A stretch of 64,000 bases of DNA, from IMG/VR virus record IMGVR_UViG_3300033182_001497, positions 3,213 through 67,212 of that record; one strand, 5' to 3'. Within the stretch, counting starts at the first letter, position 1. Each line of letters begins with the position of its first letter. The position numbers and the translations under genes were made by a program. Source of the DNA: a virus. Positions 1 through 41,801 of this stretch are shown piece by piece. The notes under the pieces were generated by a model, which searched no databases, was not told where the DNA came from, and was given only the letters and a program-made list of their open reading frames with translations.

Positions 1-2350
1 AGACAATATTGGATCCAACTGTTACGGTTGTGCCTATTGCTGCAAGTCCAGCTCCGATACTAGTTGGAGAACAATCGATTGTTCTTGCAGTAAAACCTTC
101 TAGGGTATAAGTTGGTCCGCTTAAGATTGTGGTTGTTTCTATTCCTGCTAAATTAAATGCGCTAACTTGCCAGGCAAATGTTCCCTTCGTATCTGAATCT
201 TCAACTGTAATTCTGTAGGCATTACTAAGTTTACCAACTCCAGATGCAGTTTGTGACAGTGATGATGGGTTGGTTTGCGAGGGATCTATTGATAAAGTTG
301 GAGCATTTAACATTAATTGGCTTGTTGTTAAATTAAAATTATCACTAGTAGGAGAAGTCGATGTTTTTAATTTTGCGGCTAAATTGTTGATGCTTATTGT
401 TAGTGGGGCATTGGCAATATTTACCACTGCAAAGTCTTCTGTAACCGCTCCATTTGCGGTTCTTGTAGCTTGTATTTTGAAGTTATTTTGTCCTCCGTCA
501 ATATCTATATTGTAATCTCCGCTAGAATACCTTGATGTTTTTAGGCCTTCGAATGTATTTGAGTTGTCAATAGAGAGTTGATTGTTTGGAGAAGTGTATT
601 CAACTTCATCGAAATTATTAATTAAATTTTCAACTTCTGCAAATTCAGTGCTTTTGATTGCATCTTGATTGGTTGGATAAGATATTGTTGGTATGTTTAT
701 GGAGGGAAATGTTTGATTGTGTACTTCTGCTGTATCTGTGGTTGTGATAGGGTCGCTTAATGTACCAAAATTATTTCTAAGAGTAAATGTAGCAGGTTGG
801 TTTCCGTCTCTAGTATTAAGACCAAGAGGTCCGAAAACTTTCAATGGAACATCAAATTGAAAATTTCCATTTGGCAATGTAGTTTTAGAATAGTTTGATG
901 AAAATGATGTTTGTGATCCGTCGCTTATTCCATTGCTACTGACGGATATTTGTATATCGTTTAAACCCACACCGTTTCCGTCTATTTCTATTGTTGAGTT
1001 TACAATGTCTCCATCTTTAACTTGAGTTGTTCCAATGATGTGTGGCGCAGTTGCGCTACTTGCAAGACTATCCATTTGTGTTGAAACAATAACTGGGCCG
1101 TTCGCTACTTTTACAGTTACTCGATCAAGATCGGTCGCTCCATTGCCTGTTCGCACTGCATATATTTCTATATTGTCTGTATCGCTGAATATACCGGTTT
1201 CGTAATTTACAGTTTTTACGCTTTCAAAATCGCCGCTATTATTGATTGATATATTGCTACTCAAACTAGTATAACTAACATAATCTACCCCATTTACCCA
1301 ATTTGATATGTTATTGTTGAATGTTGTGCTTTCTCCTTCGCGTAGCCCGTCTGTTCTTCCGTTGTATGATGTCGGGTCGTTTGCTACAATATTTGGGTAT
1401 TGCTGATCAAGTAGTCTGGTACCACTTGTGTGTGTAAAATCTGTTGATTCGCGGATTTCTCCGGTTGTTCCAAAACTATCAATTGCTTGCACTGCTACTG
1501 ATTGTGCGCCTTCGCGATTCGAAACGAATACTGGAATTGTTGCACGATAAATGCCACCGAGATCTTCAAGCGTATAACTTGCGAAATTTACTTCTTGAGC
1601 AAGTCCATGATCGTGAACCTTGATTGATTGAATATCATCGCGGTTGAATTCGGCGTAGATATTTATTAGATCTCCCTGTTTTAGGTGAGTTGTTCCGAGT
1701 AGTTCTCCAGCTTTCGGGGTAGCTGTAGATATTTCATCGATGTATACATTAGTCGGAATTGGACCTGCACCAAGTTCGGTGAGTGGAAGTATAACCTCTC
1801 GACCATTTGCTTCGCCAGTAATTTCTGTTAACCCTTCGACATTTAAATTATCGATATACCCTTCGAATCTACGAGTGTCTGTTCCGAGTTCGATGATATT
1901 ATTGAATGGGATTTCTTGTCCATTTATTTTTGCGATGCCAATATATTCATCATTTGGGCCATCCCATTGAAGGGTAAAACGCATGTCTTCTGCGACCGCT
2001 ACAGTAACTCCAGAAAGCTGGGTGTTGGGCGTGGGTGTTGTATAGAAATCTTTTTGAGTGACCCCAAGATTATCAACTGCATCTGAAAAGAAGAGAAATG
2101 GAGAGGCTTCTTCAAGTGTTTGTTGTATGGTTTCTACGGTAGTTGCTACATCAATACCGCTTATGGTTAAACCTTCAGTAAAATCACCACTTGCGAAAAC
2201 AACATTGTCTGTTGTTCTTACATTTTGATCCATCGAGATTGACAATCCGCTAATGTAGAGATTATCGAATACACCAGTCGCCCAAGCTTTTGTGGGTCTA
2301 CCTACTCCGCCTTCGCCGCTGTTCCTTGGTACTAAATTCCTTGTGGCCAT
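1..2350 (-). CDS. Large beta-rich virion-associated protein (C-terminus runs off the window), with a tandemly repeated ~210-aa module
   Basis: Not in the ORF track. ATG at 2350 gives MATRNLVPRNSGEGGVGRPTKAW...; the same frame reads ...AIGTTVTVGSNIV at base 2. T/S/N-rich. GTGTAAT motif 7 nt upstream. Confidence 0.75.
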   Translation of the reverse strand, partial: MATRNLVPRNSGEGGVGRPTKAWATGVFDNLYISGLSISMDQNVRTTDNVVFASGDFTEGLTISGIDVATTVETIQQTLEEASPFLFFSDAVDNLGVTQKDFYTTPTPNTQLSGVTVAVAEDMRFTLQWDGPNDEYIGIAKINGQEIPFNNIIELGTDTRRFEGYIDNLNVEGLTEITGEANGREVILPLTELGAGPIPTNVYIDEISTATPKAGELLGTTHLKQGDLINIYAEFNRDDIQSIKVHDHGLAQEVNFASYTLEDLGGIYRATIPVFVSNREGAQSVAVQAIDSFGTTGEIRESTDFTHTSGTRLLDQQYPNIVANDPTSYNGRTDGLREGESTTFNNNISNWVNGVDYVSYTSLSSNISINNSGDFESVKTVNYETGIFSDTDNIEIYAVRTGNGATDLDRVTVKVANGPVIVSTQMDSLASSATAPHIIGTTQVKDGDIVNSTIEIDGNGVGLNDIQISVSSNGISDGSQTSFSSNYSKTTLPNGNFQFDVPLKVFGPLGLNTRDGNQPATFTLRNNFGTLSDPITTTDTAEVHNQTFPSINIPTISYPTNQDAIKSTEFAEVENLINNFDEVEYTSPNNQLSIDNSNTFEGLKTSRYSSGDYNIDIDGGQNNFKIQATRTANGAVTEDFAVVNIANAPLTISINNLAAKLKTSTSPTSDNFNLTTSQLMLNAPTLSIDPSQTNPSSLSQTASGVGKLSNAYRITVEDSDTKGTFAWQVSAFNLAGIETTTILSGPTYTLEGFTARTIDCSPTSIGAGLAAIGTTVTVGSNIV

Positions 2351-2373: not shown

Positions 2374-2763
2374 TTAAAATGATATTTCGTCAGTGAATGC
2401 TTCGGGGCCGCTGTTATATCTCCAATGATTACTTCTGAGTTCAAGGTCATTTTCATTTCTTAGTATCCACATTGGGTCTGCTATATGTTTTGCGTTACTT
2501 GGGACTATATCGCCTTCCGAGTCAAGTTCAAATGCTTCTTCTAATGTATATCTTTGCTGTGTGTAGGTATCTTGTATTAAGTTTAGTATGTCTGGGTTAC
2601 CGGTAAAATAATCCAAGAAGTTGATGCCGCTAATTGTTAGAGTTGTTGGTACATGAACTGAATCTCCATCCAGTTCCAATTGCGGTTGTAATGGATTGTC
2701 TCCAATAACATACCTACTAGGACCAACTTTTTGAATTGGCTCTCTTAATCTACTAAATTCCAT
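2374..2763 (-). CDS. Hypothetical protein
   Basis: 129-aa ORF coupled by a 1-nt overlap to the upstream ORF. Confidence 0.6.
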   Translation of the reverse strand: MEFSRLREPIQKVGPSRYVIGDNPLQPQLELDGDSVHVPTTLTISGINFLDYFTGNPDILNLIQDTYTQQRYTLEEAFELDSEGDIVPSNAKHIADPMWILRNENDLELRSNHWRYNSGPEAFTDEISF

Positions 2764-3698
2764 TATTCAATGATTACATCAGATGTTCCAGTTTGTTTGT
2801 ATGTGATAGTATATTTCATTGTAAAGCCTGATATTGTGTGTGGTCTTTTTACATATATTTTTCTTGCTTCATCACTATCAATACGGACAGATGTATCTGG
2901 ATTGAGATACATTATATTATTGTTTTCTGGATCTTCTGTTCGATTCGCATCGTAACTTTCATCGATTGTATGAAATTGTATAGGATACGGCGACTCATTA
3001 AACAATAAAACACTTTCTGCTAATCCAAGATCATATAATGTAGTAAAATCTTTTAATTCATATGAATTTATTAAACTAGCTCTTTCATTGTCAAAGCGCA
3101 AGGCGTATGCTGTATCAGTATGAAATGTTCCATCTTGTTGTACGCCGCGATTTGGATCTGCGTCTTCTGCTAATATAAAATAATTTGGATGCCCTGTTTC
3201 TGGAACACTTGGGTTGGTGCGACCATTGGCGTAATGAGTATTGTAGATGTCATCCATAATGAATCGATCTACGCCGTATGTGTTTCCTGAGTATGTACCA
3301 AAGCGTTCTTCGTCTGGAATGTTTTCCATTAAGATAAAATCTTCCTCTATCTTTTGGTTTACAGTTTTTGTGATGAGTTTCCATGGTTGTATGTCAACTC
3401 GATCAATGTTTATTACTGCGCCGCTTTGATTAGCTATACCAGAGGATATGCTTGAAAGTAGCCCTGATACTTCTACTCCCCCAAATCCTCCACTTATAAC
3501 TCCACTAAGCCCAGAGATAAGGTCATTTAAGTTTCCTATATCTACCGATCCGCCGCCACCAACTCCGCCACCAGCAGAAGGTTCCCAGCGACCATCACCA
3601 CTATTCCAGTTGTAAGTAAAGACCGGACTAGGTGATAAGTGGTCTAACTTGGTTATATCCGTATACAACGGATTGTTTTTAAATCCTGGATTTGACAT
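2763..3698 (-). CDS. Hypothetical, probably virion-associated protein with Gly-rich linker
   Basis: 311-aa ORF, GGGVGGGG linker, preceded by the GTGTAAT motif. Confidence 0.6.
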   Translation of the reverse strand: MSNPGFKNNPLYTDITKLDHLSPSPVFTYNWNSGDGRWEPSAGGGVGGGGSVDIGNLNDLISGLSGVISGGFGGVEVSGLLSSISSGIANQSGAVINIDRVDIQPWKLITKTVNQKIEEDFILMENIPDEERFGTYSGNTYGVDRFIMDDIYNTHYANGRTNPSVPETGHPNYFILAEDADPNRGVQQDGTFHTDTAYALRFDNERASLINSYELKDFTTLYDLGLAESVLLFNESPYPIQFHTIDESYDANRTEDPENNNIMYLNPDTSVRIDSDEARKIYVKRPHTISGFTMKYTITYKQTGTSDVIIE

Positions 3699-3708
3699 CG
3701 CAGGAATT

Positions 3709-3715
3709 ATTACAC
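3709..3715 (-). promoter_or_regulatory. GTGTAAT putative late-promoter motif, 10 nt before ATG 3698
   Basis: Minus strand GTGTAAT-AATTCCTGCG-ATG. Confidence 0.55.
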
Positions 3716-3721
3716 TTTTTT

Positions 3722-4066
3722 TTAGCCTCTATCCTGCGGATGTTTTAATCCGCGGCGTTTTTTACTGTATTCTTGAAAGTATTTCTTTTGAACAGGGTCG
3801 TAGCCAAGTTTGTCTTTGCGTTTTTGGCTCATTTCTTTGCTGTGATCCATGATATCACCGTATGTGCCTTTTTTGTTCCCAGTGTTGTTTACAAAAGCTT
3901 TGTTATCAAATGGGTCTGTTTGTGAATCGATGCTTGCCTGAGGGCTATAGAACACACGCTTCCATTGCACACCTTTCTCATCAACATATACATGTTCTTC
4001 TTTCATTGATTGAACCACATCTATTGTTTCAGATGTTACTGGATGTTCGTATGTATAAAGCGGCAT
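3722..4066 (-). CDS. FmdB-like small protein lacking the Zn-ribbon cysteines
   Basis: MPLYTYEHP...MKE...WKRVF..P matches the FmdB N-terminal pattern, but without CxxC. Confidence 0.55.
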   Translation of the reverse strand: MPLYTYEHPVTSETIDVVQSMKEEHVYVDEKGVQWKRVFYSPQASIDSQTDPFDNKAFVNNTGNKKGTYGDIMDHSKEMSQKRKDKLGYDPVQKKYFQEYSKKRRGLKHPQDRG

Positions 4067-5124: not shown

Positions 5125-5492
5125 AATGGTACATCAGTGAATTCATCTTCAACTTCTTCTGCTTTTGGTTCGCCAGAATTTTCTTGTTCTTCTGTTTTAT
5201 CTAAAAATGTAACTGTGTCTGCACGACAGAAAATGCGCGTTCTATTTTCACCACTCTTGGTTTGCCAGGAACTCATGTTCAGTTTACCTTCGACAAGAAC
5301 CTTGCGGCCCTTACTTAAGAAGCGATTGCAGTTTTCAGCCACCTTATTCCATGTTTCTATGTCAATATAGAAGACGCTGTTTGCTGCTTTGTTATTGATG
5401 GCGATTGCGAAGTCGCATACTTTGTTGTCACCTTTGATTTCGCGAAACTTTGGGTCGCGAGTTAAATTTCCTAGTCCTATAAATTTGTTCAT
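5121..5492 (-). CDS. ssb: Single-stranded DNA-binding protein
   Basis: NKFIGLGNLTRDP, AENCNRFLSKGRKVLVEGKL, acidic tail ending DVPF. Confidence 0.95.
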   Translation of the reverse strand: MNKFIGLGNLTRDPKFREIKGDNKVCDFAIAINNKAANSVFYIDIETWNKVAENCNRFLSKGRKVLVEGKLNMSSWQTKSGENRTRIFCRADTVTFLDKTEEQENSGEPKAEEVEDEFTDVPF

Positions 5493-6085
5493 ATTTCTTG
5501 TTTTAGTTCGTGTTGTACATGTTCTAGTGCTGAATTATGTATGTTAATACAGCCTTGTATGCTTAAATTCATTTCGTCTCCTATGTGTTTCCATGGCATA
5601 ACTTTATTTTTACTACCAGTAATATATCGCATTTTGAATATTTTTTCAACTCTTTTATCAGGATGATCTTTTATGATTGTTAAAACTTTGTTGAATAAAT
5701 CGTTTTTAATACTTTCGGATATTGAGTCTACTTCGATCTCTTCTGCGCTTGATAGATTTTCGAGAAACTCGCTTTGAAATGCGGGCTTGCGTTTGTTTCT
5801 GTTGTAAAGATTTAGACACATCCATTTGGTTTCATTTCCGAGATAAGTGCTGAACTTTGCTCCTTTCTCTGGATCGTAATTTTTTGCGGCCTGATAAATC
5901 TTGAAATCTTTATCTTTTATAAGATCTTCATAATCAATAAATGGACTACTTGGGCTAGCATATACATTTACCATATCAAGATATATTCCGCTGTGACGAT
6001 TGATTAATTGTATTAAACTATCTTGTACATTTACATCTGATTGTACATTTTCTATCAGCTCGAGATCAGATAATTCTTGTGTCAT
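5489..6085 (-). CDS. Phage-encoded sigma70-family sigma factor (regions 2 and 4)
   Basis: YDPEKGAKFSTY region-2 motif; C-terminal HTH (WKHIGDEMNLSIQGCINIH). Confidence 0.85.
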   Translation of the reverse strand: MTQELSDLELIENVQSDVNVQDSLIQLINRHSGIYLDMVNVYASPSSPFIDYEDLIKDKDFKIYQAAKNYDPEKGAKFSTYLGNETKWMCLNLYNRNKRKPAFQSEFLENLSSAEEIEVDSISESIKNDLFNKVLTIIKDHPDKRVEKIFKMRYITGSKNKVMPWKHIGDEMNLSIQGCINIHNSALEHVQHELKQEI

Positions 6086-6632: not shown

Positions 6633-6929
6633 TTATGCTCCAAATACTAATTTGACATTACTTGATAGATCATGAAGTCCGGCATTAGCGAGCATTCTGG
6701 ATACACTATGATAGTAGATTAGATCATCATAATCTTCCTCGATTGCATCAGGCTCCAGATGATGGGATATCATAACCGATGATAACTTTAAATGTTTACC
6801 GTACTTCTCTAGCATTTTCGTTAAAGCTTCGGTACAAGCCTCAGTTTCATCTTCTGCCTCGATGATAACCGACCAATCAGAGCATCGTATCATGTAATAC
6901 TTACTTTCACTTAGATCTATAAATTTCAT
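6633..6929 (-). CDS. Hypothetical protein
   Basis: 98-aa ORF, first gene after a sigma70-type promoter. Confidence 0.6.
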   Translation of the reverse strand: MKFIDLSESKYYMIRCSDWSVIIEAEDETEACTEALTKMLEKYGKHLKLSSVMISHHLEPDAIEEDYDDLIYYHSVSRMLANAGLHDLSSNVKLVFGA

Positions 6930-6935
6930 GAAACC

Positions 6936-6964
6936 ATCATATCAACATTCCAGCAATTTGTCAA
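6936..6964 (-). promoter_or_regulatory. Sigma70-type promoter for the leftward kinase-sigma-ssb operon
   Basis: TTGACA-N17-TATGAT on the minus strand, 6 nt before ATG 6929. Confidence 0.75.
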
Positions 6965-33129: not shown

Positions 33130-36100
33130 TTATTCACTCAATAATCCTCCTGGGCGTTGTTCTTCTACAATCACTGCGACAACTTGTTGCTTGATTCGCT
33201 CGGCCAATTGAGCATTATTTTGTTCATCGCTTGAACGATCTGCAGGATTTTGGCCTGAGTTGTCTTGTGATTGGTTTTCTTTTTTGGAACCGCTGCCGCG
33301 TTCCATGTTGATTGAAATGTTTATGTTGTTTGTGTTACCACCAGAAGATGCAGTTTCACTGCTTCCCATGAGTTCGCTTACTGCGCCGCCAGCATTGAAC
33401 TTTCCTGCGTTGATACGATCAAGCATCGGCTTGCCGAGCTGACGAGCACTGCTTGCACGAATAACATATTCTCCCTCGCTGAGCATTGCAGGAATTTGGT
33501 CGATTCCAGATTTTCCCGAGATGTATCCGCCGCTAGCGTATTTACGGATTGGACCGCCCCTGCTTTGACCCTTATATAAATCTTCTACAAAATTATTAAC
33601 AAGAACATTCTCTTGTATATTTCTTCCCAGAAACCCCTTTTCTCCCAAAAAATTAAAACCTTTAGATATGCCCGCTCCAGCAACAATTCCAACTAGAGAT
33701 CCTATCAATTGTCTACGCTTTGCTTTTTTAGCTTGTCGACGTGCCTCTGCTTCTTGACGCTTGCGTTCTTCTTCTTGAAGAATACCCATGATTGTACTAG
33801 TGTCTTCACTCAATCCAACATTACCAGATTGACTGTAAAAGAATCCGCTCATTGCTCGGCTTTGATATGCTCTCCCAGATTCATATCCTCGACCGCCACC
33901 AAAGTTTGCGGCGAGTGCAGATCCAGGCGCGCCGCCATTGCTATAACCAGGTATTTTTCCTCCTGCATTCAAGCCGTGCATGAATGCGCCACCGTATTTA
34001 GCAACCGCATCGCGACCCATCACATACTCTCCATTACTCACCATCGCAGGCACTCCTCCGCCACGAGAATAGTTACGTACATTTCCGCCTCGCGAAAATC
34101 CCATCGCGCCAACAATGCTGTACGCCGCTTTTTGCATCATCGCTTTTTGTATCATGCCAAGGAAACTAATCGCGGCATCTGTTAATGCGTCTTTTATATT
34201 TTTTGTACCATTTAATGCTTCGGTCATTGCGTTGGCCATGCCATCTGCGAAAGCGTAGGGGATTTGTTGACCGAGTTGATAGTCCATTCTCGCAACTTGC
34301 TTATTCATATCAGCAAAACCTTTTTCCATACCTCTACCAAAAGCACCCGGGCCAGTTTGTTGACGATACAATTCTTTTGCTATCTCCTCTTGAGTTTTTG
34401 CGCGATCTTCTTCTATATCTAAAACAGACTGAGCCTTTTCTTTTAATATTCTATACGCTTCGTTTTGATTGTCAAGAAATTCAATCATTTGATATCTTTT
34501 TGAATTCTCAGAAGTATTTCCTTCACTTAAATTATCTGCAATTTCTTGAGCTATAGACTCCTGCTCTTCTCTCGAGTAAGATTGAAAATCTTTTATTGAT
34601 TTACCTTTTCCCTGCATTACTTGCATAAATTCACCCTTATATTCTTGGCCAGACAGCATATCAAATAAAGCCTTAGATCTATCAAACCCTCCTCTACTTA
34701 TAGATTCGTTATATACTTTAGTTGCGTTCAATAAGGCTTTTTCATATTGCATACTAGCTTTTTCAATGTCGCTCATTAGGTGCCCTTGAGTAGCAGTATA
34801 ATAATCCATTTCGTTAGATATTCTTGAATAAGTTTCAGATGCGGACATCATTTTTTTATTAAAAGCGTCTTGAGCAGAGAGCATAGCCTGCTCTTTCTTC
34901 AATCTAAGTATAACGGCTTTATTATAATTATTTTGATTATTTGCCTGTTGCTGAAGGCTTGCATATAAAGTGTCCCATAAAGCTTTTATTTTATCTTGAT
35001 CTTCACTCTCAAATATTTTTAATTGATCTAATATTTCTTTACCGGAAATATTCGTTTTACCAAATACCTCTTTAAAATCGGGACTTGCAAACATTTCTGT
35101 CTCGGAGCCTCCAAACATACTTCTTATAACTTTGGCTTTTCCGCTAATTCCCACGTTCTTCTTCCCTGTCTCCAGGTCGCTAATCGCTTGATTTATTTGA
35201 TCTCTTGTAAGCCCGGCATCTTCAGCTCGTTTAGTTTGTTGGTTTGAATCAAACCTCGCCTCGTCTTGAGATGACTGTAATAAATACCTCTGTTTATCAA
35301 TTTGTTCGTCATAAACTGCGGACACTTCTTTCTCTAATTTTGACATTTCATCAAATGCATCCAAATATGTTGTTCCATACCTTGAGAATCTAAATTCTTT
35401 ACCAGGATCCGATGCAGAGGCTAGCATACTAGCCGCAATCGTATCGGCATCTATTTTTCCACCTAAAGCCCCCAATGGACTTGCAGCAGTTTTACCTGTA
35501 AAAGCCTGAGCTAAACCTGCAGCCAAAGCCATATCTTTAGCTCGTGTAGCAGCTTCGGCAGCAGCTCGATCTGCTTTTGCTTTTTCTAATGCAGCTTCTT
35601 TTGCGTCATTGAAACCAGACACCATGCCATATATTCCCCCAGCTACTGCACCTATTACAGTGCCTATTCCAGGCAATATCATACCCAAACTAGCTCCTGT
35701 AGATGCTCCCATTAAACCGCCGCTCAGAGTACCACCAACCCTACTGGTTGGGTCATCACCCCCAACATATCCAGCTATCATAGGAAGGCCCATCATTAAA
35801 GCCATGCTTCCCATTCCCTCCATGCGTCCACCTCTGGCCGCAGCAGCTCCTCTTGCTTGTGCAGAAGTATTTGCGTTAGTTGCTAAGGTATTCTTTTGTT
35901 TTGAGACCGTATTAGCTTGCTTTGTTGTGGTATTTTTTTGTATTTCTTGGGTGTTTCTTTTTGAAATTTTATTCGCCTTATCCTGCCCAGCCTTACTCAA
36001 TTCAATAGATTTGCCATTCTTCTTTTGTTTTTTAATGATTTTATCTATTTCTTTCCTGTAGTCTTCCTCTGAATAAATTGAAGCATCAATACTTTGAATT

Positions 36101-39100
36101 TGTTCGTTGATTTTTTTTGCGAGAGCTTGTCGTTCTTTGCGAATTCCGGCATCTTTATGTATATCTCCAGCTGTAAATTCTTGTGCATAATTCGGCACAA
36201 ATCCATTTGCGCCAAACACATCGCGTAAGCCGTTTGGTTCATCATATGTATTGGTTACGCCGAGGCCGAGGGGATTGCCCTTACTCACGAGTGCATTGTG
36301 AGATCCTACGCGAATTTGAGATACAGGAACACCTGCAGCTTTTTCTCGACCTATTGCATCTGATAATGGATCGGCGAAGTTGGGAACAAATCCTTTTGCC
36401 GCAGCATTTAAAACTTTTTTTGGAATATCTCCCAGTCTTGCGGCATTAAGATCTTTTTTGGCCTCAATAAATCGTCTTTTACCTATTCCCATAAAATTTT
36501 CTGAAAGACGTTGTGCATTGTCTCCCATAAAATCAAATGCTCTTTGTTGTTCGGCTCCAGTCAAGGCTTTATTATTCAAAGCTCCTCTTACTCCAGCTTC
36601 GAATAAAGCGCCTAATGCCGACCCGTCAGGAAGAACATGTTTTTCCAATACGTTAGTTCCTTTGCTTTTAGAACCGAATAATTTTTGACCAATTTTTGAA
36701 GAAAATTTATCAAATCCAGAACCAATAGATCTTTTTAAAGCTGCTTTTAAAGTGTCCGCGCCAACTGCTTTTTCCATTCGCTCCGCATCGTCTTCTGAAA
36801 CTGCATATACAGCTTTTGTTGGTAGAGTTGCTGTTACTTTTCGCTTCCAATGATCGGAATTTTTATCTGGCATTTTATCTAAACCATATTTTCTACCTCT
36901 TATAGATTTCATATAAGGAAGTAACTTCTTTCTAACCTCTTGGGGTAAAGACCCAAAGGATTGACTATAAGTTATTGGCTCTGTTGGGCCTTCTTTTCCA
37001 TAACCCAAAAGAACCCCCATATCTTTGATTTTTTGCTTGGTTAAGGGTATTTGATTTAAATTTAGGGGTATGCTCGCTAAATCGCTTGTAAACGACAATG
37101 TTGTTTTCTTTATATTTCCGCTTGCAATCAATTTATCGACCTCGCTTGACTTCCATCTCGACAAATCCACCTCTTCTCCTACCCCAGTTAATAAACCTTT
37201 GTCTCTGCTGTTTTTCAACACTGTATATCTCGAAAAATTAGGTATATATCCTCCCGCAGCATATGGATCGAATCCATGTATACTACCAAATGCTTGTTGA
37301 TAGTTTTTTCCAGCTTTGCTGGATTGAGGTGGCATGATCGCGGGCTGCTTAAAGCCTGCGAAATTTTTGACTGTTTCTGCGCTGTTATATACAATCGAAC
37401 CTTCGCCGGGCATATTCATTGTGCGAATACTTCCTGCCGCATAACCGCCTTTCGCTGCTTGAGCTCGCTCTGGATCTGCAAAGTTTGGAATATGTCCGTA
37501 TGCACGACGCTTACCTTGAGTTAAGCCTGGGCCATATCCTCGAGTATATAAAGTAGCCGCTAATTTTTGACTTACAGCATTTAATCTTTCTGCTTCTGCG
37601 GTTTGCATTTTGAGCAAGCCAAGCAGTATTTTTTCTTTTTCAGTTCTTGAAATGTCAGTGCGCAACATTTCTTTTCCAAGAGCAGCATTTTGACCTATCA
37701 GTGCAACTAAACTGGTTTGGATAGCTTTCTGTTTTTGAGCTTCAGTGGTAACACCAATCAGCGAGCTTAAACTTTCTTTTGTAAACTTGGCAGCAGTCAT
37801 GAATAATTTAACAAAGACAGTTGTTAAAATCACCAACCCTGGACCAGTTATGATATTACCTATACCTTTTAAAAATCCTGTTGCAAATTTATTTCCCACC
37901 CCTTCTCCATCACCCAATACTCCACTTAATCCCTCAGCTAAACTTTTTACTGTGTTTAATATTTTTTCCATTCCAGGAGCAAGAGCAATTTCTCCAATTT
38001 GAGTACTTACTTGCTTGATGGCCAAACCTGTCTCTGTGGCCATAGCACTCATTGTTTCTCTTAATTGTTGATTTTTTTGTACAGCTTCATCTGTGGCGCT
38101 AGAAGATATTTCTGTAGCTCTAGCAAGGATGCCGTTTTGTTTTGCTGCGTCACTCAATACGGCTTTCAAAATATTGATATGAAACAATCCGCCCATAGTT
38201 TGAGTGATCTGCGCTTTTTGTGCTTCACTGAGAGTATCAAATGTATTGGCTAGATCAGAAAGTATTCGTTTTGCTCCGATTGTATTTCCCTCGAGGTCTC
38301 TAACGGCAATACCCAAATCTTCTAATTGATTTAGCGTGTCGGTGCGACCTGTTTTTGTGAAAATGGTTTTTAAGGCATTACCAATAACGGCACCACCACG
38401 AGCGGTTTGTTGTTGTGCCGAGGTTACAATACCAATCAGTTCATCGATATCAACACCTGCACTTTTTGCAGCCTGACCAGTACGAGAAATAGCTGCGGCA
38501 AAATCTTCTGCACTTACCGCAAATTGAACGTCGACTGCAGCAAACTTACTAACAAGCTGAGTAGTATCTTTGATTTGATTACCGTAAGTATTCATTGCAG
38601 CAGTTAAAGATTTTACTGCTTCGGCAGAATCCATACCAGTCAATCGAGTAAGAATCAATGCGTCTCTCGTTCTCTTTAAAGATTCCTCCATACTCAAACC
38701 TTGACGAGCATATTCGGTGGCAGCATCTGCAGCAACTCTAAAAGCTGCCCCAGTTTCTTTCGCTACCTTAAATAATCCATCACCAAACTTGTCAAGGTTC
38801 TGAGCGCTGAGTCCCATCACCACATTGATGTCTGCCATGGATTTTTCAACCTCCACCATGTTACGCACCATTCCCTTGAATGCATCTGCAACACCATTGA
38901 TGATCGCCATACTAGCACCGAACGCCAAGATACGAGCATTCGCAGCTTCCATTGATTTGCTGAACTCGTCAGCGGCGCGCTTCATGTTGCCCAGAGGTTG
39001 GGTAGCACCCTTATCATCAACTGTAATTTTGATGGGTTGTCGGCGAATTCTATTTATAGCCGCTTGTACCGCCGCTTCTAGCGGCTTGGTATTACCATGT

Positions 39101-39120
39101 ACGTCAAGATCTATCGCCAT
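33130..39120 (-). CDS. Tail tape measure protein
   Basis: TP901-type core (VEKSMADINVV...AEAVKSLTAAMNTY), Gly-zipper segment, C-terminal PAMLSEGEYVI. Confidence 0.95.
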   Translation of the reverse strand: MAIDLDVHGNTKPLEAAVQAAINRIRRQPIKITVDDKGATQPLGNMKRAADEFSKSMEAANARILAFGASMAIINGVADAFKGMVRNMVEVEKSMADINVVMGLSAQNLDKFGDGLFKVAKETGAAFRVAADAATEYARQGLSMEESLKRTRDALILTRLTGMDSAEAVKSLTAAMNTYGNQIKDTTQLVSKFAAVDVQFAVSAEDFAAAISRTGQAAKSAGVDIDELIGIVTSAQQQTARGGAVIGNALKTIFTKTGRTDTLNQLEDLGIAVRDLEGNTIGAKRILSDLANTFDTLSEAQKAQITQTMGGLFHINILKAVLSDAAKQNGILARATEISSSATDEAVQKNQQLRETMSAMATETGLAIKQVSTQIGEIALAPGMEKILNTVKSLAEGLSGVLGDGEGVGNKFATGFLKGIGNIITGPGLVILTTVFVKLFMTAAKFTKESLSSLIGVTTEAQKQKAIQTSLVALIGQNAALGKEMLRTDISRTEKEKILLGLLKMQTAEAERLNAVSQKLAATLYTRGYGPGLTQGKRRAYGHIPNFADPERAQAAKGGYAAGSIRTMNMPGEGSIVYNSAETVKNFAGFKQPAIMPPQSSKAGKNYQQAFGSIHGFDPYAAGGYIPNFSRYTVLKNSRDKGLLTGVGEEVDLSRWKSSEVDKLIASGNIKKTTLSFTSDLASIPLNLNQIPLTKQKIKDMGVLLGYGKEGPTEPITYSQSFGSLPQEVRKKLLPYMKSIRGRKYGLDKMPDKNSDHWKRKVTATLPTKAVYAVSEDDAERMEKAVGADTLKAALKRSIGSGFDKFSSKIGQKLFGSKSKGTNVLEKHVLPDGSALGALFEAGVRGALNNKALTGAEQQRAFDFMGDNAQRLSENFMGIGKRRFIEAKKDLNAARLGDIPKKVLNAAAKGFVPNFADPLSDAIGREKAAGVPVSQIRVGSHNALVSKGNPLGLGVTNTYDEPNGLRDVFGANGFVPNYAQEFTAGDIHKDAGIRKERQALAKKINEQIQSIDASIYSEEDYRKEIDKIIKKQKKNGKSIELSKAGQDKANKISKRNTQEIQKNTTTKQANTVSKQKNTLATNANTSAQARGAAAARGGRMEGMGSMALMMGLPMIAGYVGGDDPTSRVGGTLSGGLMGASTGASLGMILPGIGTVIGAVAGGIYGMVSGFNDAKEAALEKAKADRAAAEAATRAKDMALAAGLAQAFTGKTAASPLGALGGKIDADTIAASMLASASDPGKEFRFSRYGTTYLDAFDEMSKLEKEVSAVYDEQIDKQRYLLQSSQDEARFDSNQQTKRAEDAGLTRDQINQAISDLETGKKNVGISGKAKVIRSMFGGSETEMFASPDFKEVFGKTNISGKEILDQLKIFESEDQDKIKALWDTLYASLQQQANNQNNYNKAVILRLKKEQAMLSAQDAFNKKMMSASETYSRISNEMDYYTATQGHLMSDIEKASMQYEKALLNATKVYNESISRGGFDRSKALFDMLSGQEYKGEFMQVMQGKGKSIKDFQSYSREEQESIAQEIADNLSEGNTSENSKRYQMIEFLDNQNEAYRILKEKAQSVLDIEEDRAKTQEEIAKELYRQQTGPGAFGRGMEKGFADMNKQVARMDYQLGQQIPYAFADGMANAMTEALNGTKNIKDALTDAAISFLGMIQKAMMQKAAYSIVGAMGFSRGGNVRNYSRGGGVPAMVSNGEYVMGRDAVAKYGGAFMHGLNAGGKIPGYSNGGAPGSALAANFGGGRGYESGRAYQSRAMSGFFYSQSGNVGLSEDTSTIMGILQEEERKRQEAEARRQAKKAKRRQLIGSLVGIVAGAGISKGFNFLGEKGFLGRNIQENVLVNNFVEDLYKGQSRGGPIRKYASGGYISGKSGIDQIPAMLSEGEYVIRASSARQLGKPMLDRINAGKFNAGGAVSELMGSSETASSGGNTNNINISINMERGSGSKKENQSQDNSGQNPADRSSDEQNNAQLAERIKQQVVAVIVEEQRPGGLLSE

Positions 39121-39148
39121 ATTACCTTATTCCTTGTTCAAGGTAATA
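39120..39148 (-). promoter_or_regulatory. 9-bp stem-loop sequestering the SD-like AAGGU and the A of the tape-measure AUG
   Basis: mRNA UAUUACCUU-gaacaaggaau-AAGGUAAUA(UG). Confidence 0.7.
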
Positions 39149-39154
39149 ATACAC
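39148..39154 (-). promoter_or_regulatory. GTGTATT putative late promoter for the tape measure gene
   Basis: Motif in the 40-nt intergenic gap; +1 predicted at ~39140. Confidence 0.55.
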
Positions 39155-39160
39155 TAAATT

Positions 39161-40147
39161 TTAAGTCACACCATGCAATTTCATCAAATCTTCCATATTT
39201 AATGTTCCGCCTTTTTTCTTTGCTTCTTCATGTAGACTGATTGTACCAGATGGTTTTTTGACTCCGAGACGCTCGTAATCTTCTTTTTTGGCACCTACGA
39301 TTGTGCCGCCATCTCCTTTGTCCAGCTTGTCTTTTGCTTTGTCGCGCTCTTCTTTTGAACTGCTACCAAACTCAATCAATTTCGCGGGATCTTTGCGTAT
39401 CGATTCTGGAATATTTTCATTATTATCAAATATATTTTTAAATACTCTAGTATATACAATTAATCTAATTTGATTGTATGTCAATTCACAAAATGGTTTT
39501 CCATAAAATTGCATGCTATCCTCGGCGAATCCAAGATATGGATGATAAAAATCTTCGAGTATTGTATATTGTATACCTTCTTCGCTGAAACTTTCGAATA
39601 GTTCGTTGTATTTTAATACTACTTTTTTTATGTCGTGGCTTTCGAGCTCGTCGTATTCGTCTTGCGTAAACAATTGCTCGGTCAGCTCTTGGTTTTTATA
39701 AAAAGACTTGATGATATAAAAATCATTGAGACGATCTTTTGCGTATCGTTCGCATGTGTTACCAACAAGTTGTATTTTTTGTGCGGTTTTTTCGTTGAGT
39801 AGTTTCGTTTCTTTGGCAATGATACTTTTTTGTCGTTCGACATCTGCTTTGAGTATCAGTTTATTTAATGTTGTTTTTAAATTTTCAAGATAAAGAGTTT
39901 TCTCAGTGATGACTTTTTCGTCAGCATCTGTCCATTGACCCTCTTCTTTTAGATACGCAAGCATTTCTGCCTCGGTGGGCACACCTCTACGTTGCGCGTT
40001 TTGATAATACTTTTCCTCGATCTCTTCGAGTTCCACCTGATCATGCGGGGTCAGGTGCTTGATGTATACAAATTCGCCGTCTAGAAGCGTTGTGGTATAG
40101 CCGCGAACAACGTCTCTAAAGATTCGTCTGCGCCTCGTGGTTTCCAC
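39161..40147 (-). CDS. Probable tail assembly chaperone (second)
   Basis: Helical protein immediately upstream of the tape measure gene. Confidence 0.55.
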   Translation of the reverse strand: METTRRRRIFRDVVRGYTTTLLDGEFVYIKHLTPHDQVELEEIEEKYYQNAQRRGVPTEAEMLAYLKEEGQWTDADEKVITEKTLYLENLKTTLNKLILKADVERQKSIIAKETKLLNEKTAQKIQLVGNTCERYAKDRLNDFYIIKSFYKNQELTEQLFTQDEYDELESHDIKKVVLKYNELFESFSEEGIQYTILEDFYHPYLGFAEDSMQFYGKPFCELTYNQIRLIVYTRVFKNIFDNNENIPESIRKDPAKLIEFGSSSKEERDKAKDKLDKGDGGTIVGAKKEDYERLGVKKPSGTISLHEEAKKKGGTLNMEDLMKLHGVT

Positions 40148-40150
40148 GCA

Positions 40151-40972
40151 TTATACTTTTCCTTCTTCGATGTCGCGGTCAAGCTTTTCGAAGTCGTCGG
40201 GCAGAACTGCTCCACTACTATAGTACCAAAAACTATACAGCGCCGCAATCTTTCCACCAACAATATCATACAATTCATCACCTTCTTCTTCCATCTCATA
40301 ATAAACCTGCAACTTTTGCTCGAAATCATTTCCTTCAAACATAGGAGTTGTTTTTTCTTCATCTCCTTTTTGCAGATATGTAAGATTAAGAATATACCAT
40401 TGTATCACTTTATTTTCAGCTCGTACATCAGCAGTATGATTGAATAAATTAGAATAGGATGTTTCGACATTGATGATATCTTTACGAAGCTCGGCGATTT
40501 CGCCAGTAATTTCTTTGAGTCGTGCAAGATCTTCTTCGGTTTGATCGCTCTTTAAATTTTTGCGCTCGCTTTCTTGAGATAGTTCGCCATACTTGACATA
40601 CATTTTGGTGAGAGCTTTTGCGTCTTCTTCGGCGAGCAGCCCACCAGTGTCGCTATACTTTTTAGCAAGCATTGCTTTGGTGAGAATACCTTTCTTGATG
40701 CACTGACTCATCTCAACACTAAACTCAAGCTCGGCTTCTTCGATCTGACGACGAGTCGGTTGCTTCATGATCACACGATACGGTGTCTTTTCGCTCACCT
40801 CTTTGGTGACTGACACTTCTTCCTGTTCTCCAGTCTCTTGATTGGTAACAGTATTTGTTTCGGTGCGTTTTACTTTTTCTTCTTTTTCAAAGATAAAGCT
40901 GTAAATTTCACGCATTTTTTTGCGCGTATCATCCATTGTTGGAAGCGGTTGTTCTAATGTTGTTTCTGCCAT
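40151..40972 (-). CDS. Probable tail assembly chaperone (first)
   Basis: Acidic helical protein two genes upstream of the tape measure gene. Confidence 0.55.
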   Translation of the reverse strand: MAETTLEQPLPTMDDTRKKMREIYSFIFEKEEKVKRTETNTVTNQETGEQEEVSVTKEVSEKTPYRVIMKQPTRRQIEEAELEFSVEMSQCIKKGILTKAMLAKKYSDTGGLLAEEDAKALTKMYVKYGELSQESERKNLKSDQTEEDLARLKEITGEIAELRKDIINVETSYSNLFNHTADVRAENKVIQWYILNLTYLQKGDEEKTTPMFEGNDFEQKLQVYYEMEEEGDELYDIVGGKIAALYSFWYYSSGAVLPDDFEKLDRDIEEGKV

Positions 40973-40974
40973 GA

Positions 40975-41262
40975 CTATTTAAATGTAAAACCTATAATAT
41001 AATTATCTATTTCTCCTTCGATATTTCTAATTGTTTCATTACCAATATCGAGAGTACGCTTGCGAAGATGCTGTAACTTGTCTTCGTCAAAGTAGTCGGC
41101 TTGATCGATCAGAGGCACACATCCCTCGGGTAAATTTTGCCTCAGCTTGTTGAAATGAATTTGATGCTCCTTGTGGAGATCTTCCAACATCATAAGAAAT
41201 CCCTTAAAAAGGGACACCGTGTTCCGTTGGCAGCATTTTTTAAAAATGTCCTCTGCGTTCAT
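40975..41262 (-). CDS. Hypothetical protein
   Basis: Start reassigned to ATG 41262; the track's GTG at 41292 is the promoter motif itself. Confidence 0.6.
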   Translation of the reverse strand: MNAEDIFKKCCQRNTVSLFKGFLMMLEDLHKEHQIHFNKLRQNLPEGCVPLIDQADYFDEDKLQHLRKRTLDIGNETIRNIEGEIDNYIIGFTFK

Positions 41263-41285
41263 ATATACCTTATACCTTACAATCA

Positions 41286-41314
41286 TATACACAAAAAAAA
41301 ATCTTTAGTGTAAA
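41286..41314. promoter_or_regulatory. Back-to-back pair of GTGTAWW motifs (divergent putative late promoters)
   Basis: tatacac 41286-41292 (minus); gtgtaaa 41308-41314 (plus, 7 nt before ATG 41322). Confidence 0.65.
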
Positions 41315-41321
41315 ACTATAT

Positions 41322-41801
41322 ATGGCTGAATTTTTATCATCTTCTCAACGCGCCAGCATTGCTGCTAATCTACTTGATCTTCATGATACATTTGGACGAG
41401 AAATAATTGTATACAAAGAAGCACAAAAAGTAATCATCAGCACCGATCCAAACTATAACTATTTATATAAAAACGCAGGAGCACAAAATCAAAGCGTACA
41501 AAATGTGCCTGTTAAAAAAGTATTCAAAGCAAGAATTCGATACGATACCGATCGCAGTCTAGAATATTTTGGAGAAACAGACACACAAGTAAAAGTCAAT
41601 CGAGTTGATCCAAACAGTATGGTGCGCGTCAAATTAAAAATAGAAGATTATGAATATATAAAAGACGCAAAGCGCGTCGAACTTGATGGCAGAATGTTTC
41701 ATGTTGAGTCGGATCCACGACCACACGGACTGTTTGATGTAATTCAATTTGTTACTCTATTTTTACGTCCAATCGAAGCAAATGCCCAATCCACTAAATA
41801 G
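41322..41801 (+). CDS. Head-closure / head-tail adaptor-like protein
   Basis: Size, beta-rich pattern and position in the neck cluster. Confidence 0.5.
   Translation: MAEFLSSSQRASIAANLLDLHDTFGREIIVYKEAQKVIISTDPNYNYLYKNAGAQNQSVQNVPVKKVFKARIRYDTDRSLEYFGETDTQVKVNRVDPNSMVRVKLKIEDYEYIKDAKRVELDGRMFHVESDPRPHGLFDVIQFVTLFLRPIEANAQSTK

Follow-up and report, generated by a model that had tools for sequence, protein, structure and literature searches.

Genes at the tape-measure locus

The window, that is, the whole 64,000-nt stretch of viral DNA analysed here, carries on its minus strand the gene of a 1996-aa tape measure protein (33130–39120), as identified by matches to the PHROG tape-measure families (E-values down to 4e-53) and to PF10145 (95.7 bits). 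Upstream of it, across an intergenic gap of 40 nt, lies the gene of a 328-aa protein from an unannotated viral family (39161–40147, minus strand), whose stop codon TAA occupies 39163–39161 and whose C-terminus contains the conserved sequence GGxLxMxDLMKLHG. This gene belongs to a unit encoding proteins of 93, 273 and 328 aa, which is headed by a GTGTATA motif (41286–41292, minus strand). No credible terminator was found on the minus strand between 41292 and 39120, so that, judging by sequence, the unit reads through into the tape-measure gene.

The proteins of the upstream unit had no family match in Pfam or PHROG, and the Atlas assigned them to unnamed viral clusters only. A model of the 328-aa protein was all-helical with a pLDDT of 81; the fold search with this model gave nothing significant, the best match being to "tail assembly chaperones" of Arthrobacter phage (E = 0.05, TM 0.23). 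The 273-aa and 328-aa ORFs are in one frame, separated by a TAA and without a frameshift. A tail assembly chaperone of the gpG/gpGT type is not supported for the upstream genes, since there was neither a family match or significant fold match nor a −1 frameshift; the "chaperone operon" of the earlier note, which had been made from this DNA alone, was a guess from gene position. It was also noticed that the two ORFs are separated only by TAA-TGC-GTG (40145–40153, minus strand), as they are in the related locus L003, an arrangement that could have arisen by chance (1 in 3) or represent a fusion by stop read-through. In addition, the C-terminal tail of the 328-aa protein, KKGGxLxMxDLMKLHG (window about 39164–39210, minus strand), is conserved into clades in which the tape measure is about 50% identical. 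Identity falls to 30% in the remainder of the sequence, and the tail is disordered in the model; it may be a docking peptide.

The phage belongs to an uncultured marine family, of which IMG/VR contains more than 546 loci. Searches of cultured phages, by megablast with the region and by tblastn with the 328-aa protein, gave no match, the matches of the tape measure all had less than 30% identity, and our search found no cultured relative and no literature on a GTGTAWW motif. At one end of the window (2–2350, minus strand), an open-ended 783-aa protein matches the PHROG family "tail sheath" (E = 6e-47), which is an odd combination with the lambda-like gpJ, the minor-tail genes and the 1996-aa tape measure of this phage. 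Family members (L175, L191 and other genome_contigs loci) occur in MAG bins of mixed label, with Flavobacteriaceae the most frequent, and one 90%-identical contig was binned as Coraliomargarita (Opitutales). The host-type TTGACA/TATAAT promoters argue against a host from the Bacteroidota.

The GTGTAWW motif and the predicted transcription start

In the gap before the tape-measure gene, a GTGTATT motif was located at 39154–39148 (minus strand). Its GTGTA part was invariant upstream of the tape-measure ATG in 64 distinct leaders, from genomes whose tape measures share 42–93% protein identity. The bare 7-mer GTGTATT was not enriched in the window (7 copies found, 9.1 expected); the degenerate form GTGTAWW was strongly biased in position: of its 26 copies in the window, about 12 precede a start codon on the coding strand by 35 nt or less. 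At five to six of these sites the distance to the start codon is exactly 7 nt, too short to accommodate a leader. At the divergent plus-strand gene at 41322, motif and ATG are separated by exactly 7 nt in each of 25 relatives, and the sequence of this spacer varies freely (more than 20 different sequences among the 25). Such a fixed spacing is the prediction for a leaderless mRNA that starts 8 nt after the motif. Furthermore, AAGG begins exactly at motif+8 in three other leaders, and in two clades the tape-measure motif directly follows a strong intrinsic terminator, so that no room remains for a −35 element. GTGTAWW can be described as a G followed by a −10-like hexamer (TGTAWW) and a 7-nt discriminator, and we infer, with good support from these regularities, that it acts as a promoter. 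In the TGTAWW found 7 nt before the leaderless starts, position 2 is G, whereas the canonical base is A. The 7-nt spacing had already been pointed out in the earlier note and was borne out at the window sites and in the relatives; by this rule the predicted +1 of the tape-measure transcript falls at about 39140. Transcript-like contig ends near the predicted +1 were sought in the metagenome contigs, and none was found.

A candidate for the factor that reads the motif is encoded at 5489–6085 (minus strand). This 198-aa protein matched PF04542 (Sigma70_r2) with 26–28 bits against a cut-off of 24 bits, and its match to phrog_351 ("RNA polymerase sigma factor") spans residues 10–195.

Almost no gene in the window has an SD-like tract. 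Tandem AAGGnnnAAGG was found in only three leaders (39120, 26899 and 41253, all on the minus strand), each behind a GTGTAWW motif, and in five relatives (L025, L032, L036, L039 and L050) about 20 nt separate the tandem of the 93-aa gene's leader from its ATG. Since most genes lack an SD, the SD-like AAGGU before the tape-measure AUG may not act as a classical SD; considered together with the distance of about 20 nt, this suggests that the AAGG tandem may be an element of the mRNA 5′ end. A divergent pair of GTGTAWW motifs at 41292 (minus strand) and 41308 (plus strand) is present in the window (41254–41321) and in relatives (e.g. L003:730–865), and opposite the gene with the leaderless start, the other transcript of this pair would begin exactly at AAGGTAYAAGG.

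The leader hairpin and its occurrence among relatives

Read in the mRNA sense, the leader between the upstream stop codon and the tape-measure gene is TAA-aattta-GTGTATT(39154–39148)-ATTACCTT-gaacaaggaat-AAGGTAATA-TG, in which a 5′ arm TATTACCTT (39148–39140) is followed by the 3′ arm AAGGTAATA (39128–39120). On the minus strand, UAUUACCUU pairs with AAGGUAAUA across an 11-nt loop, exactly as the earlier note had it. RNAfold adds one G.U pair with G39139, giving 10 bp and a 9-nt loop; with this pair the 5′ arm extends over 39139–39148 and the loop over 39129–39138. The final T of GTGTATT is the opening base of the 5′ arm, which also covers the 7-nt spacer of the promoter, and the predicted +1 would be the last base of this arm. 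The 3′ arm contains the proximal AAGG, the short spacer that follows this AAGG and, as its final base (39120), the A of the AUG. By prediction, the stem sequesters the proximal AAGG and this A, while a second SD-like AAGGA (39135–39131) is left exposed in the loop. The burial of AAGGU and of the A of AUG claimed in the earlier note agrees with this fold, whereas an SD role for the buried AAGGU is uncertain. The argument for gating is independent of the role of AAGG because the stem covers the AUG region as well. The stem starts 12–15 nt past the upstream stop codon and is not followed by a U-run, and thus is not a terminator.

A 38-nt piece containing the hairpin had a predicted folding energy of −9.7 kcal/mol at 37°C (z = −3.45 relative to dinucleotide shuffles), and one of 200 dinucleotide shuffles was as stable. 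At lower temperatures the values were −15.3 (20°C), −16.9 (15°C) and −18.6 kcal/mol (10°C). The close clade has 23 distinct leaders, and in each of them a hairpin of −6 to −12 kcal/mol formed in the read-through RNA, whereas transcripts beginning at the predicted +1 were unstructured (0 to −0.3 kcal/mol), in agreement with the difference between long and short leaders that the earlier note had anticipated. In this clade the ACCT of the spacer is nearly invariant between variable flanks. The one member with a decayed arm (CCTT changed to CCAT) is L051, and in the same locus a tRNA-Gln gene (anticodon TTG; L051:2861–2934) has been inserted downstream of the 328-aa gene, ahead of the tape-measure promoter.

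Over the whole set of 64 distinct leaders, which are not phylogenetically independent of one another, composition-keeping shuffles of the 9 nt after GTGTA were beaten at p < 0.05 in 23 leaders, where about 3 would be expected. Different lineages use different pairing registers (CCTTAT/ATAAGG, CCTTGT/ACAAGG, ACCTTGT/ATAAGGT, ATCTTAC/GTAAGGT and CTTATTC/GAATAAG), and in one further register, TTATCC/GGATAA, the partner is inside the coding region. In a sister group with 62–66% identity, the TAATAC of the motif pairs with codons 2–4 (GTATTA), and in L095 of this group both sides have changed, to TAATAG/CTATTA. The 5′ arm is placed between motif and +1 in all of these registers. As a control, the leader of the 93-aa gene was used, which belongs to the same promoter class, has the same AAGG-tandem leader and is operon-initial. 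Here the complementarity of the spacer was no better than that of shuffles (1 of 26 leaders at p < 0.05), and in genome-matched pairs the tape-measure leader beat the control leader in 22 of 26 cases (Wilcoxon p = 1.6e-4). These comparisons show, at the level of sequence, that complementarity between the spacer and the start region is under selection at the tape-measure leader.

Conservation of the helix itself is less uniform. The earlier note had named covariation of the stem as a check, and the outcome was negative: in two alignments, double changes were no commoner at the tape-measure stem than in shuffles, which is due to the 3′ arm (AATAAGGTAAT) being almost invariant, and RNAalifold predicted no consensus helix once the sister group with 62–66% identity was included. 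About 82% of cells pair at the stem, compared with 23–55% in slid controls. In the 32-row clade to which the window belongs (support of 100 in the tape-measure tree), the hairpin is kept in 31 rows (ddG ≤ −4.5). Conservation of the stem, which the note had also raised, holds within this clade, whereas in the clade of about 50% identity hairpins appear and disappear from one close relative to the next, and loss is frequent; at least 13 changes of hairpin state were counted on the tape-measure tree. All 15 leaders with a terminator upstream have no hairpin; as they come from no more than 2 independent clades, they are too few to support a rule that a terminator upstream means no hairpin.

A second hairpin was found at the minus-strand site 3715, where GTGTAAT (3709–3715) is nested in a structure (3684–3715) that encloses the ATG of a 311-aa gene (2763–3698). 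The 5′ arm (3705–3699) is again in the spacer, the 3′ arm (3690–3684) is formed by codons 4–5, and the ATG at 3698 is in the loop. Significant structure in the read-through RNA only was obtained for 7 of 7 distinct relatives (p = 0.005–0.04), and RNAalifold predicted the helix unaided, with compensatory change in two pairs. Upstream, a near-consensus host-type promoter, TTGACA-17-TGnTATGAT (6936–6964, minus strand), ends 6 nt before an ATG at 6929 and heads an early operon from which transcription would run on into the 3715 site, no minus-strand terminator being found between the two. The genes of this operon encode a dNMP kinase, the 198-aa sigma factor, an SSB, a glycosyltransferase and a small regulator, a transcription-regulator-like gene being located at 3722–4066. 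Here the promoter upstream (host-type, early) and the internal one (GTGTAAT) differ in temporal class, and by its sequence the arrangement is the complete logic of T4 gene e, in which early read-through would be silenced and the late promoter would lie within the hairpin. At a third internal site, 26928 (minus strand), no such hairpin was found in 12 distinct leaders from 23 related loci. Hence nesting in a hairpin is not a general feature of internal GTGTAWW promoters, which suggests that the design is used selectively.

A proposed promoter-dependent gate on tape-measure translation

We propose that GTGTATT serves the tape-measure gene as a −10-type promoter of its own, which is probably read by RNA polymerase carrying the phage sigma factor, and that transcription would begin about 8 nt after the motif. 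The 7-nt spacer and the first transcribed base would then make up the 5′ arm of the 9–10 bp hairpin. Read-through RNA from 41292 would hold both arms, fold and, as predicted, initiate poorly at the tape-measure AUG, whereas the local transcript would lack the 5′ arm and have an open 20-nt leader carrying the tandem AAGG. The calculated cost of opening the 31-nt initiation region at 37°C is 11.5 kcal/mol for the read-through RNA and 4.4 for the local RNA (difference of 7.1), and at 15°C the values are 19.2 and 9.4 kcal/mol (difference of 9.8); for two control leaders the corresponding differences at 37°C are 2.2 and 4.6 kcal/mol. From the known dependence of initiation on nearby structure, a gap of this size would correspond to one to two orders of magnitude in translation. 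Coupling through unwinding of the stem by the terminating ribosome is unlikely, since a stem that starts this far past the stop codon should be beyond its reach. We infer from the sequence the promoter activity, the exact +1 and the effect on tape-measure translation, and for the whole, a hairpin gate set by promoter choice, our confidence leans slightly to the positive side. Its weak points include that a rationale for silencing read-through from a promoter of the same class is not obvious and that AAGGA is exposed in the loop.

Four explanations compete with such a gate. Tape measure protein is needed in only a few copies per virion, and the hairpin might be a constitutive attenuator, present on all tape-measure mRNAs and keeping a low-copy protein low, if transcription started further upstream or the motif were no promoter. 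Besides the low copy need, this is consistent with a weak sigma-70-like sequence, TTGATG-18-TAAAAT, which ends at 39158 and would set the +1 just before the arm, and with the upstream stop codon and T-run, which give TAnnnT in many relatives. The number of sigma-70 matches is, however, at chance level (42 found, 37.8 expected), both the strict 7-nt rule and the order of terminator and then motif put the start downstream of the motif, and the 5′ arm stays within the motif-to-+1 spacer whatever the register; we regard the attenuator as unlikely. An operator at the DNA level is much less probable still, at the low end of what we would consider. It would be a 9-bp inverted repeat with an 11-bp spacer, bound over the promoter by a dimeric regulator, and indeed the palindrome is perfect and overlaps both promoter and +1, and the small transcription-regulator-like gene could supply a binding protein. 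Against it, loop lengths range from 4 to 13 nt and registers shift among relatives, and G.U pairs (in the window, L040, L096 and L130) keep the pairing of the RNA while breaking the symmetry of the DNA; G.U pairs and variable loops together favour an RNA structure over an operator.

That the pairing is incidental, between a spacer rich in pyrimidines (CCTT) and an adjacent AAGG leader rich in purines, and has been kept by shared ancestry, would fit the covariation result, the lability of the hairpin in one clade and the occurrence of pyrimidine-rich spacers in the control leader too. It does not explain why the composition-keeping shuffles were beaten so often, why a control leader of similar composition has no excess, why different registers and partners are in use, or the compensatory changes at the 3715 site, and it appears quite unlikely to us. 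Somewhat harder to credit is an intercistronic element of stability or processing, which would protect the 3′ end of the upstream mRNA or a processed 5′ end of the tape-measure mRNA, its overlap with the start being secondary. The position of the stem 12 nt after the upstream stop without a U-run, as well as the decay of the arm in L051 downstream of an inserted tRNA gene, which is a processing site, would agree with such a function. Across lineages, however, the 3′ arm tracks AAGG, the AUG or the first codons and not the distance from the stop; the analogous 3715 hairpin encloses an AUG, and an A/U-rich stem of 10 bp would hold back exonucleases only modestly. We therefore rate this element as improbable.

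The hairpin of promoter pA in phiX174 (T_H, gene A) provides one comparison, being a case of a promoter nested in a hairpin that acts on upstream transcripts and overlaps the initiation region of the next gene. T_H is an intrinsic terminator with a U-run, whereas the tape-measure hairpin has none.

The proposed gate resembles more closely the devices of phage T4. In gene e, and also in soc and 49, transcripts from upstream promoters fold into a hairpin that hides the initiation region (PMC3014915). A −10-only promoter that depends on the phage sigma lies in the DNA of the 5′ strand; RNA made from it is therefore without the arm and is translated, the difference in translation being about 100-fold for gene e (PMC3014915). 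For I-TevI, I-TevII, I-TevIII and segB of T4 and mobE of Aeh1, the late promoter is placed such that late transcripts cannot form the structure sequestering the RBS (PMC2988022). As in gene e, soc and 49, the tape-measure hairpin is predicted to form on read-through RNA, with a putative promoter in the DNA of its 5′ arm, and as in the I-TevI type the local transcript would lack the sequestering structure. The differences from gene e are that the motif is GTGTAWW here and TATAAATA in T4, that the presumed sigma is the 198-aa protein with sigma-70 region 2 instead of gp55, and that the gene thought to be gated codes for a tape measure in an uncultured marine lineage. The I-TevI type gates selfish endonucleases in early and middle units, whereas structural genes are concerned here. 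In T4 genes 38 and 25, a stem between SD and AUG brings the two together and enhances initiation (PMC3014915). The tape-measure leader also has an RNA stem in the translation initiation region, but an enhancing hairpin of this type was rejected on geometry, with the AUG and the proximal AAGG being inside the stem. That the tape-measure hairpin and promoter are a further case of the gene e or I-TevI type of device is partly supported by their sequences. The earlier note was right about the T4 late-promoter systems; the early/late logic of these systems, however, does not carry over to the tape-measure site.

The GTGTATA heading the upstream unit (41292, minus strand) is of the same promoter class as the tape-measure motif, and thus the gate would not be an early/late switch; its likely purpose is to make the output of tape measure depend on the gene's own promoter, and not to time it. 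The suggestion of the earlier note, by which the gate would set the output of the tape measure independently of the upstream proteins, is reasonable. A broader reading is that the family uses a new phage-sigma promoter, GTGTAWW, that promoter-nested hairpins have evolved in it repeatedly at sites inside operons, translation thereby being licensed by which promoter is used, and that the tape-measure gate sets a ratio and not timing; GTGTAWW would start mRNAs that are leaderless or begin with AAGGnnnAAGG, and a ratio-setting gate between two late units would be an undescribed use of the T4-type device. This broader reading, including both of these points, is offered tentatively, as we think it less probable than its failure.

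If the gate is real, the T4 device would have arisen independently in an unrelated and abundant lineage of uncultured marine phages, with a different sigma factor and a different promoter. The combination of motif, fixed 7-nt spacer and arm within the spacer would provide a signature, readable from sequence only, for internal promoters and gates in metagenomic phages, and a defined promoter, +1 rule and set of leaders would improve the annotation of gene starts and operons for the family. For the biology of these phages, it would suggest that the very long, low-copy tape measure is expressed uncoupled from the genes just upstream.
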